Below, piece after piece: positions 6,401 to 8,869 of a stretch of DNA of 64,000 nucleotides. Positions within the stretch are counted from its first letter, which is position 1. Each line of letters opens with the position of its first letter. Source of the DNA: Pilimelia sp. (GTDB lineage: Bacteria; Actinomycetota; Actinomycetes; Mycobacteriales; Micromonosporaceae). The position numbers and the translations under genes were made by a program. The DNA is taken from positions 6,717-70,716 of the forward strand of contig DASQDS010000794.1 of NCBI GenBank assembly GCA_035634075.1, read 5' to 3'. Under the pieces are notes generated by a model. It was not told where the DNA came from. It saw nothing but the letters and a program-made list of their open reading frames with translations, and did not search any database.

Positions 6401-8869
6401 ATGGAGCTGATCAACAGCAAGCGGATCCTGTTGAAAGCGAGCTACGTGCTCACCGAGCTGACTCCGCGCAACCGCGCGGACCTCGCCGGCCGGGCGTCGC
6501 GGGGCATGGAGAAGGCAAACTTCCTGCGCGCTCTCGTGGTTGCGCCGGAGCAGTTGGCCGAGGTGCGGCAGAGCCCGGACCCGAACGTCTCCCGCCTGGC
6601 CCGCCTCCTCAGCGACCTGCCCGCGTCCAACACGGCCGCCGCGACGCTCGTAGCGGAGGTCCCGGAGGACGCGTTCCTGGAGTTGGCCGACGCCCTGCCG
6701 GCGGAGCGCGGTTCGGCCGTCAACCGGTACCTCCGGGTGGCCTTCGCGCAGCGGCTCACGGTGGCCCCGGTAGGCCGGCTGCACCTGGAACGGCTGGAGA
6801 TGGCGCCGGCGGGCACCGAGAAGGGCGAGTTGATGTTTACGGTGCCGCTCACCCCGGCGGAGACCGTTACCGTCTCGCACAAAGAATGGGCGACGGGCCG
6901 GGACGAGTACGAGCGGATCGTGCAGGACTCGTTCGAAAGCTACAGCGAGCGGGGCGTGGTCGAGAAAACCGACGCGTCGCTGACCACCGAGAACGAGACG
7001 AAGCACAGCAGCGCGTTCAACTTCAACGCGAGTGCCGGCGGCAGCTACGGGCCGGTGAGCGTGTCGGTGAGTACGGGGCTGACGAACACGTCCGAGAACC
7101 GCCAGTCGGTCAAGGCCAGCACCCAGCAGAGCCGTGAGATCACGCAGAAGGCATCGGCGCGCGCCCGCCAGGAGCACAAGGTCTCCGTGAAGCTGGAGTC
7201 GGTGCGCGGGACCGAGGATGCGTCGTACCGGACGATCACCAACCCGCATGCCGACAAGGCGCTGCGCGTCGACTACTTCCGGATGATGCGGAAATGGAAG
7301 ATCGATCATTTCCGGTACGGGCTGCGCCTCACCTTCGACATCGCGGTGCCGAACCCCGGCGCGTCGCTGTGGGCGAAGTACGAGCAGCTGGACGAGCTGG
7401 ACCGGATGATCCGCAAGCCGTTCCACTCCGACCTGGCGGCCGACGACATCACGGCCGACGGCGTGTCCCCGTCCACCGACGGCAACTGGAACGAGCTGGC
7501 GGCCGAATACGGCGTGGCGGTCGAACCGCCGCCCGCGGCGGTGGTGTCGCTGAGCCAGTCCCGCCGGTTCGAGGAGAACAAGCTCGTCGAAGGCGCGTTC
7601 GAATTCACCGCCCCGCCGGGGTACGTCGTGCAGAGCGCGGTGCAGGGTCGGTTCCTCTACTGGGGACCGACGGGTACGCCACAGTTCATTTTCACCCACA
7701 AGAGCAGCTCGTGGACCTTCGAGGACAAGGGGGGCGGCGGCGCGGGCGCCGGCGAGGTCACGACCCTGGGTATCAGCGCCGGTGACCGGCTGACCGTGCC
7801 GTTCATGCGCGACACCCGGTACGAGATCCAGATGGTGCTGGTAGCGCACGCCGCACCGAGCACCCGCACGATGCGGGAGTGGCGGCAGCGCGTGTGGACG
7901 GCGCTGCGGGACGCCACGTTCGCCGCGTACCAGGCGCAGGTCGCGCAGTTGCAGAGCCGGCGTGACCGGCTGTGGGCGGAGCTGATCAGCAAGGACACCC
8001 TGACGCTGCGGCGGATGGAGCGCGAGGAACTGCTGCGGGGCGTGCTGACCTGGTTGATCGGCCCGGAGTTCCAGACCTCGCCGAAGCAGGTGAGCGCGAT
8101 CCTGAAGGCCCTTCTCGACCGCGAGGTGCACGACAAGCCAGACAGCGCGCAGGAGCCCGCGTTGACGGCCGCCGACTGGCAGATCGTCGCCGGGTTCGGC
8201 GACCTGGTGAAATTCATCCACCAGGCCGTCGAGTGGGAGAACCTCCTGTACTTCCTGTACCCGTACTTCTGGGGCTCCGACGATCTCGGCCGGCAGAAGC
8301 TGCTCTTCGACCATCCCGACCCCGGCCACCGCGACTTCCTGCGGGCCGGGTACGCCCGGGTGGTGGTGCCCATCCGGCCGGGCTTCGAGGCGAAGTTCAC
8401 GGGCTTGCTGGAGACCGGCACGCCGGGCGGCCAGCCGTTGCCGTACCTGACGATCGCCGAGGAGGTGGCGGCGTTCGCCCGGACCAACTACGCGGGCATT
8501 CCGCCGGCGAACCCGGAGAGGCACGCGCGCCCGCTGCTGTACCCGCAGCAACGGACAACCTGGGCCACCATGGAGAAGATCATCCAAGCGCTCGAGGACT
8601 TCCGCCTCGCCGACGGCGATTACCCGGCGACCCTGGCCGAGCTACCCGGCGCCCCGTACGCCGACGCCTGGGGCAACGAGTTCGTCTACGTCCTCCCCGG
8701 CTCGGGCAACGAGTACGACCTGATCTCGCTGGGTGCCGACGGCCAGGAGGGCGGAGAGGGCATCGACGCGGACATCTCCGCCGGTGCCGGCGCCTCACTC
8801 ATGGCCACCTGGCACGAGTACACGCCGACGAGCGGCATCGACATCGAGGTGCAGGCCATCCCGCTGTAG
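6401..8869 (+). CDS. Large hypothetical multidomain protein, cassette gene B (822 aa), with a C-terminal T2SS GspG-like domain
   Basis: ATG at 6401 preceded by GGAG at 6391-6394. The ORF-track start at 6074 would overlap gene A by more than 300 nt and encodes Arg/Pro-rich junk. The C-terminus FRLADGDYPATLAELPGAPYADAWGNEFVYVLPGSGNEYDLISLGADGQEGGEGIDADI matches the conserved globular domain of type II secretion pseudopilin GspG. The central LHLERLEMAPAGTEKGELMFTVPLTPAETVTVSHKEW...RVDYFRMMRKWKIDHFRYGLRLTFDIAVPNPG and EWENLLYFLYPYFWG blocks look like conserved but unnamed modules. Confidence 0.85.
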   Translation: MELINSKRILLKASYVLTELTPRNRADLAGRASRGMEKANFLRALVVAPEQLAEVRQSPDPNVSRLARLLSDLPASNTAAATLVAEVPEDAFLELADALPAERGSAVNRYLRVAFAQRLTVAPVGRLHLERLEMAPAGTEKGELMFTVPLTPAETVTVSHKEWATGRDEYERIVQDSFESYSERGVVEKTDASLTTENETKHSSAFNFNASAGGSYGPVSVSVSTGLTNTSENRQSVKASTQQSREITQKASARARQEHKVSVKLESVRGTEDASYRTITNPHADKALRVDYFRMMRKWKIDHFRYGLRLTFDIAVPNPGASLWAKYEQLDELDRMIRKPFHSDLAADDITADGVSPSTDGNWNELAAEYGVAVEPPPAAVVSLSQSRRFEENKLVEGAFEFTAPPGYVVQSAVQGRFLYWGPTGTPQFIFTHKSSSWTFEDKGGGGAGAGEVTTLGISAGDRLTVPFMRDTRYEIQMVLVAHAAPSTRTMREWRQRVWTALRDATFAAYQAQVAQLQSRRDRLWAELISKDTLTLRRMEREELLRGVLTWLIGPEFQTSPKQVSAILKALLDREVHDKPDSAQEPALTAADWQIVAGFGDLVKFIHQAVEWENLLYFLYPYFWGSDDLGRQKLLFDHPDPGHRDFLRAGYARVVVPIRPGFEAKFTGLLETGTPGGQPLPYLTIAEEVAAFARTNYAGIPPANPERHARPLLYPQQRTTWATMEKIIQALEDFRLADGDYPATLAELPGAPYADAWGNEFVYVLPGSGNEYDLISLGADGQEGGEGIDADISAGAGASLMATWHEYTPTSGIDIEVQAIPL

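Follow-up and report, generated by a model that had tools for sequence, protein, structure and literature searches.

What is the globular head of a pseudopilin from type II secretion doing in a large, soluble actinobacterial protein, and does that head make the protein part of a secretion or pilus machine? The question is raised by a 64,000-nucleotide stretch of a Pilimelia sp. genome (contig DASQDS010000794.1, positions 6,717 to 70,716 of the forward strand), referred to here as the window, in which a gene that we call gene B (6401..8869, + strand) encodes a cysteine-free product of 822 amino acids without signal peptide or transmembrane segment. We show that residues 715-795 of this product (8543..8785, + strand), identified by Pfam, PDB, AlphaFold2 (AF2), Foldseek and profile matches, are a true homolog of the globular head of GspG, the major pseudopilin in type II secretion systems (T2SS), and that this head sits as a nested, optional module in a protein that is not itself a pilin.

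The sequence-only reading that drew attention to the locus quoted a peptide for positions 8564-8785 (+) and saw in it the core of GspG. That peptide translates exactly as given and corresponds to residues 722-795 of the 822-residue product, numbered correctly, and the Pfam check bore the assignment out, with residues 718-793 matching positions 12-106 of the 108-position T2SSG profile (PF08334), where the score of 53.5 bits (E = 2.8e-14) exceeds the cut-off of 21. A phmmer search of all PDB chains returned major pseudopilins only, led by Vibrio vulnificus EpsG (3gn9; E = 4e-8; 23 of 40 residues identical, 57%), and a profile built from 100 family members retrieved GspG chains only, with XcpT (2kep) at the top (E = 6.5e-12). 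Structural superposition gave the same answer: for an AF2 model of gene B built on the family alignment (mean predicted local distance difference test (pLDDT) score 80.4; predicted template modeling score 0.66), the Foldseek matches at E < 1e-3 were EpsG structures only, the best of which was again 3gn9 (target template modeling (TM) score 0.64, root-mean-square deviation 2.7 Å over 99 columns, 32% identity). An alpha1C-like helix (residues 715-738) opens the head and is followed by a variable loop and by the beta-sheet that bears the calcium loop; this is the same arrangement of alpha1C-type helix, beta-sheet and C-terminal loop (GADGxxGGxGxxADI) that is seen in GspG, EpsG, PulG and XcpT (PF08334; TIGR01710; PDB 3gn9, 3fu1, 4lw9 and 2kep). 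These matches lie far beyond what chance would produce.

The resemblance extends to the calcium site. In PulG and OutG, calcium is held by two aspartate side chains together with backbone carbonyls of the C-terminal loop (PMC13081927). The corresponding loop of gene B, LISLGADGQEGGEGIDADIS (residues 774-793; 8720..8779, + strand), was placed by alignment with EpsG, holds D780 and D791, and pairs without gaps with the EpsG loop TLGADGQEGGEGAAADI, the two aspartates being equally spaced in both. We take D780 and D791 to be the counterparts of the Vibrio calcium ligands, so that gene B shares with GspG and EpsG both calcium aspartates in their Vibrio-type spacing along with the 57% identity over the last 40 residues. 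Among 66 aligned family inserts, the first position holds Asp 50 times and Asn 12 times, the second holds Asp 62 times, and W757, Y763, P766, G767 and G778, which flank these positions, are near-invariant. Given this spacing and conservation, the head is probably a calcium-binding domain, a prediction made from the alignment.

The protein as a whole nevertheless falls outside the GspG pseudopilin family, even as its head falls inside the T2SSG domain family. Its enclosing open reading frame (ORF) runs from 6074 to 8869, and since every homolog opens with MELTNSKR, the start of gene B is fixed at the ATG at 6401, giving the N-terminus MELINSKRILLK. An upstream start that would supply a pilin N-terminus was rejected, as the 109 codons before 6401 overlap the partner gene (gene A, described below) out of frame, are Arg/Pro-rich and are missing from all homologs. 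Across the whole protein, the highest 19-residue Kyte-Doolittle mean is 1.0, so that there is neither a class III leader nor an alpha1N helix, as had been claimed from the sequence at the outset, and the segment directly preceding the head is hydrophilic. Gene B thus differs from GspG in having no leader (G-1, F+1, E+5), no alpha1N helix and no prepilin-peptidase site, and therefore cannot polymerize in pilin fashion; it differs further in that its head is embedded near the end of an 822-residue soluble protein, in a genome that has no T2SS as far as it is assembled.

The surroundings point the same way. No T2SS or pilus genes occur in the window, again in line with the first reading, and none adjoin any of the approximately 90 relatives that we examined. 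In the genome of origin (914 contigs, 88% complete), we found no secretin and only one T2SSG domain, that of gene B. Four T2SSE-family ATPase genes are present, all on other contigs and unlinked to the gene B locus, and presumably belong to type IV or Tad pili; two of them are adjacent (G000:C494:859-3012, frames of 585 and 403 residues) in a layout like the PilB/PilT pair of type IV pili, and the other two matches lie on C650 and C197. With the GspG equivalog model TIGR01710, gene B reaches 46.3 of the 88.85 bits that the cut-off demands, and the match is confined to profile positions 92-132. Out of five features tested for GspG, which is defined by the TIGR01710 equivalog and by PF07963 (N_methyl) with PF08334 (T2SSG), gene B has the head and the calcium loop and lacks the leader with its alpha1N helix, a sufficient TIGR01710 score and an association with T2SS machinery (secretin GspD, GspE/F, prepilin peptidase), and it is because these last three fail that we do not count it as a member of the GspG family. 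NCBI and UniRef label family members of 820-850 residues "type II secretion system protein GspG" (in Terrabacter, Micromonospora, Nonomuraea, Bacillus wiedmannii and Cohnella, among others). This label is a domain-driven misannotation, Gram-positive genomes included; to our knowledge, Gram-positive bacteria cannot have a T2SS.

How the head is built into its host became clear from comparison with homologs, of which about 100 are full-length, at 40-78% identity. We aligned B homologs from 80 loci (79 distinct genome loci of a species-representative collection plus further loci that were fetched), which gave 81 sequences. The head had initially been described as appended at the C-terminus; it is instead a nested insert, lying between a core of about 590 residues and a conserved 25-residue C-terminal beta-hairpin, ASLMATWHEYTPTSGIDIEVQAIPL (residues 798-822; 8792..8866, + strand; mean pairwise identity 0.58). 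This tail, in the form ASLxxxW.EYTPTSxxDI, ends every aligned member with or without a head. The head itself is present in 64 of the 81 sequences, between the final motif of the core (TNYPGIPPANP, around residue 705) and the tail. Its place is taken in 14 others by a mostly acidic linker of 6-14 residues that runs straight to the tail, with the hairpin kept in all 14, and in two (a Tolypothrix plasmid and an alphaproteobacterium) by an unrelated insert of 73 residues. In the one remaining sequence (L069:7641-9995), the frame is lost within the head region and the copy appears broken. Some clades carry longer inserts, of 139-187 residues, at the head site. Distant paralogs, 25-40% identical over parts of the core, have a W.E..PT... 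tail and no head, and among the best 146 cluster representatives from a library of 1.84 billion proteins, the head is found in 60 and missing from 86, with the tail motif present in 116.

Directly before the head lies a linker (residues ~696-714; 8486..8542, + strand) that AF2 models with low confidence. The low pLDDT of residues 680-710, the 30 or so before the head (51-65), as against 77-94 in the head itself, suggests a flexible tether, and hence that the modeled head may be a flexibly tethered module.

To place the gains and losses of this module, we used a quick IQ-TREE phylogeny (LG+G4) of core columns only, on which head presence switches state at least 5-7 times and head-bearing members occur in every large clade. 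When rooted with six head-less paralogs, the window's gene falls in a clade of 31 members, all of them head-bearing, and head-less lineages appear at six places inside the other clade. Deep nodes of this tree are weakly supported and its root rests on long branches, and on it the simplest reading, and the likely order of events, is a single gain of the head followed by repeated losses. Such repeated loss marks the head as an accessory rather than as what holds the protein together. Nor is the head the coupler of B to its partner, as the sister pair L047/L064 has a common lipase-type partner and differs in the head. Where it is present, the head is constrained, with a mean pairwise identity of 0.50 in the head sheet and calcium part, as compared with 0.43-0.68 in most core segments, 0.24 in the core beta-sandwich and 0.18 in the N-terminal region. 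Purifying selection maintains its calcium site. The role in oligomerization or adhesion that was first proposed for the head is plausible. A word-based search with residues 715-797 for other non-pilin carriers of such a head returned the same family only, and a literature search found no description of a pseudopilin head in this architecture.

The claim that the remainder of the protein is unrelated to pilins also held up. The protein begins with a variable helical region (residues 1-114; 6401..6742, + strand; mean pairwise identity 0.18) that AF2 renders as short helices, and distant family members align with gene B only from about residue 114. The conserved core that follows (residues 121-705; 6761..8515, + strand), delimited by family alignments, runs from long beta-hairpins through a Ser/Thr-rich segment, a beta-sandwich and long helices to an alpha/beta domain that contains EWEN and HPDPxHR motifs. 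This core matched no model in Pfam, NCBIfam, PADLOC or PHROG, none of seven distant B paralogs matched a Pfam model, and beyond the head, Foldseek gave no credible match in the PDB or BFVD. Rejected candidates include BcsB, Ena and viral jelly-rolls (E around 1e-2, TM at most 0.12), tail proteins in BFVD (root-mean-square deviation 24-60 Å) and CDTb (E = 0.08, probability 0.11).

Within the core, residues ~204-231 (FNFNASA-GGSYGP-VSVSVSTGL; 7010..7093, + strand) show a strict alternation of hydrophobic and polar columns that is kept family-wide even though the residues themselves vary. By this column pattern, they look like a candidate amphipathic beta-hairpin for membrane insertion. They lie inside a segment (residues 166-270) with pLDDT below 50, flanked by long, confidently modeled beta-hairpins. 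The family is also nearly devoid of cysteine, with none among the 822 residues of gene B, a family mean of 0.14%, and none in 36 of the 81 members; for comparison, cysteine makes up 0.7-1.2% in five of seven partner clusters (0.3% and 0.55% in the other two), 0.8% in NarG from the same window and 0.46% in a histidine kinase from the same window.

Far from being an isolated oddity, gene B belongs to a very large family of two-gene cassettes. A core-only profile matched 4,744 clusters (at 50% identity) at E <= 1e-3, of which 1,830 reached E <= 1e-30, and species-representative genomes contain 181 relatives, spread over Actinomycetota, Bacillota, Pseudomonadota, Acidobacteriota, Nitrospirota, Chloroflexota, Cyanobacteriota, Bacteroidota and Myxococcota. 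Within the window's own taxonomic family, a relative was found in 16 of 150 genomes, just one of them close, and the gene tree is incongruent with taxonomy. This scatter across phyla, the patchy presence in the own family and the conflict between tree and taxonomy together indicate horizontal transfer. One copy from a genome of the same taxonomic family (G007:C68:23181-24940) is split into two matches by an in-frame TGA and appears broken. In its own genome, gene B occurs in single copy.

The second gene of the cassette in the window, gene A (4495..6390, + strand), encodes 631 amino acids by ORF translation and lies immediately upstream. At the junction (6388..6400, + strand), direct reading of the sequence shows that the TGA of gene A overlaps a GGAG ribosome-binding site and that the ATG of gene B follows 10 nucleotides after the stop, an arrangement by which gene B is translationally coupled to gene A. 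A terminator-like hairpin (8916..8945, + strand), its stem 13 bp long and its tail T-rich, begins 47 nucleotides past the gene B stop. The cassette is located between narG (458-4126, - strand) and the downstream region, and at its start (4001-5000) the G+C fraction is 0.668, against 0.70-0.73 in the flanks, which fits a foreign origin of the cassette.

The product of gene A has an N-terminal domain marked by an invariant PD...R.E..EIKP motif, a single transmembrane helix (about residues 411-441; hydropathy peak 2.3), a stretch rich in Ala and Gly, and, at the C-terminus, a small conserved beta domain. Its invariant residues, P101-D102, R141-x-E143 and E146-I147-K148-P149 (numbered from the ATG at 4495), resemble PD-(D/E)xK, and a second, moderately hydrophobic stretch with an AxA-like end (...SVQARAA) precedes the C-terminal domain. 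We found no Pfam, PADLOC or PHROG match for gene A, its AF2 model has a pLDDT of 62, and its best Foldseek match is no better than E = 0.6. With this model and nothing below that E-value, a PD-(D/E)xK nuclease assignment was set aside as a motif-level hint.

Across the family, the partner slot is occupied by different genes. In the 16 closest loci, B is next to a homolog of gene A, which lies upstream in some and downstream in others and is convergent in one; this convergent A-type partner, in a metagenomic locus (L084:12518-14446, - strand), retains all invariant residues. At nearly all other loci, a same-strand gene from one of several unrelated families follows within about 50 bp after B. 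Recognizable partners include phospholipase D (PLD; six loci), patatin (E = 2e-20), a lipase of the LCAT/PGAP1/DUF676 type, a trypsin-like protease and a glycosidase-like protein of the Rv2525c type, and at least six further families in this slot have no Pfam match. Comparison of the four main partner clusters with hhalign detected no relationship among them, from which it follows that the partners are truly different families rather than diverged copies. No signal peptide was found on the enzyme partners, and no conserved third gene or cognate immunity gene accompanies the pair in general. In seven loci of a clade with long (139-residue) T2SSG inserts, we observed a conserved ORF of about 73 codons (MILT..QL...A.GG.....TLNQL....APG...FDLT), which directly follows B or its partner (L019:11341-11562, L020:10482-10709, L023:9080-9301 and L026:10353-10577, + strand) and may be a third component in its subclade.

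PADLOC and PHROG models matched neither A, nor B, nor their neighbors, and a Bacillus homolog of B was likewise without a PADLOC match; the only similarity of this kind was a weak resemblance of the PLD partners to DrmC. Eight neighborhoods that we compared are otherwise unrelated to one another, with integrase genes or fragments near three of the eight. One Bacillus locus is clearly defense-rich: immediately upstream of the B homolog of Bacillus wiedmannii (L002:1-9385), there is a tyrosine integrase, a Prok-E2/ThiF (E2/E1, Bil-like) module and a nucleotidyltransferase/HEPN pair, so that this region looks like a defense or mobile island. A consistent defense-island context was rejected for the family, as only this one of the eight neighborhoods is clearly of that kind.

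What, then, might such a cassette do? In the working that we propose, gene B would be what stays constant in a mobile two-gene cassette, a carrier or trigger that is active at or in a membrane, and the neighboring gene would provide the damaging activity. The pseudopilin head would serve as a non-polymerizing, calcium-stabilized and surface-exposed module for binding or specificity, one that may tune the docking of B and yet be dispensable for the core mechanism, since it has been lost repeatedly. The placement at or in a membrane is suggested by the candidate amphipathic beta-hairpin in an otherwise soluble protein, the near-absence of cysteine, the jelly-roll-like sandwich and the calcium-site domain. 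The GspG-type calcium domain is normally extracytoplasmic and is stabilized in its native setting by periplasmic calcium. We give this statement as a whole a probability of roughly 0.55; its structural and evolutionary part is close to certain, and its functional part is tentative, with odds somewhat below even. Several points weigh against it. Foldseek finds no similarity to aerolysin, MACPF or binary toxins, and the hairpin region is the one modeled below a pLDDT of 50. B and the enzyme partners carry no signal peptide, and with no evident route of export, an extracellular role for a calcium-dependent domain is hard to account for. The repeated loss could also mean that the head contributes little.

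Two other accounts of the cassette differ in where B acts, either inside the producer or on other cells; sequence cannot decide between these places of action, and we regard each as possible and to about the same degree. Under the former, the cassette would be an abortive-infection or anti-phage defense, with B a cytoplasmic sensor or trigger, the neighbor a cell-killing effector, and the head a sensing or decoy surface for a phage or pilus-related protein. Signal peptides and an immunity-like third gene are both missing, as expected of such a system, and the partners (patatin, PLD, lipase, protease, transmembrane protein and a nuclease-like motif) fit the known repertoire of defense effectors. 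The patchy, horizontally transferred distribution is also in keeping with defense, as are the integrase, the E1/E2 (Bil-like) module and the HEPN/nucleotidyltransferase pair that neighbor the Bacillus wiedmannii copy, and the integrase fragments or MqsRA near three further loci. The closest parallel would be defense of the type of cyclic-oligonucleotide-based anti-phage signaling systems (CBASS), with their patatin, PLD-like, transmembrane, protease and nuclease effectors, which the B cassette resembles as a mobile two-gene unit that has a constant large protein, an interchangeable effector-type neighbor and no immunity gene. Unlike CBASS-type defense, however, the B cassette has no signaling enzyme, NTPase, known sensor domain, PADLOC match or consistent defense-island context. 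The same gaps count against defense more broadly: no PADLOC model matches B or its partners save for the generic PLD/DrmC similarity, most neighborhoods are ordinary housekeeping ones, an NTPase or any other recognized sensor module is missing from B, and both cysteine depletion and a calcium-site domain would be unusual in a cytoplasmic sensor. On balance, we hold the defense explanation to be a serious one that is still rather unlikely.

If B acts on other cells, the cassette would be a binary-type toxin directed at microbes or eukaryotes, in which B is released, binds its target through the sandwich and the head, oligomerizes, inserts its hairpin, and admits or potentiates the enzyme partner. 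Such a role fits the conserved candidate amphipathic hairpin, the cysteine-free B, a pair of features (calcium-site head, jelly-roll-like sandwich) that typify extracellular binding modules, and partner enzymes that attack envelope or membrane. Beta-pore-forming and binary toxins (aerolysin/ETX-MTX2 and translocases of the anthrax protective-antigen type) have a Ser/Thr-rich amphipathic beta-hairpin between long strands, like the candidate one of B, and share with its cassette accessory binding domains that vary among relatives and a separate enzyme component. The resemblance is one in principle only, though, as B shows no detectable sequence or fold similarity to these toxins and lacks a signal peptide. 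A toxin is also hard to reconcile with the lack of any secretion signal, secretion-system linkage or immunity gene, with partners whose cysteine content is that of normal cytoplasmic proteins, with the absence of fold similarity to known pore formers, and with the window's own partner, an integral membrane protein that is hard to see as delivered cargo. Polymorphic toxin and effector-immunity cassettes likewise have a swappable slot for a toxic enzyme in common with the B cassette, but the cognate immunity gene is missing from the latter. We consider a binary-type toxin doubtful, to a degree similar to defense.

A bolder version, which we think quite improbable, is that B represents a new class of self-sufficient, membrane-inserting carrier for a swappable effector, working without a secretion machine, and that its nested head is a molecular mimic through which B docks, on a target cell or invading phage, to T2SS or type IV pilus machinery or to some other surface that binds pilins. 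Least credible by far is that B is a genuine, if odd, part of a type IV filament or of a machine resembling the T2SS, such as a giant minor pseudopilin-like tip or docking protein, and a pilus or T2SS role is essentially excluded: the T2SSE-family ATPases on other contigs of the genome and the NCBI name GspG for family members speak for it, against a missing leader peptide and alpha1N helix, a failed TIGR01710 match, no pilus genes in the window or beside the roughly 90 relatives, and a family whose members may or may not have the head and come from both monoderms and diderms.

Returning to what the head itself tells us, these results indicate that a pilin head can exist as an ordinary insertable domain far from filament systems. 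The domain is a known one; its nested, optional setting on a large host family is new. The finding corrects a systematic database misannotation of proteins of 820-850 residues as GspG, and it flags a family, organized as a two-gene cassette and comprising 4,700 or more clusters (50% identity), that has no Pfam model, structural relative or literature. Natural variants with and without the head provide a ready-made experiment on what the head contributes, and were the mimic reading true, it would mean that a structural unit of pili had come to serve for targeting. More broadly, the role of the constant protein could reveal a new mechanism of conflict or delivery.

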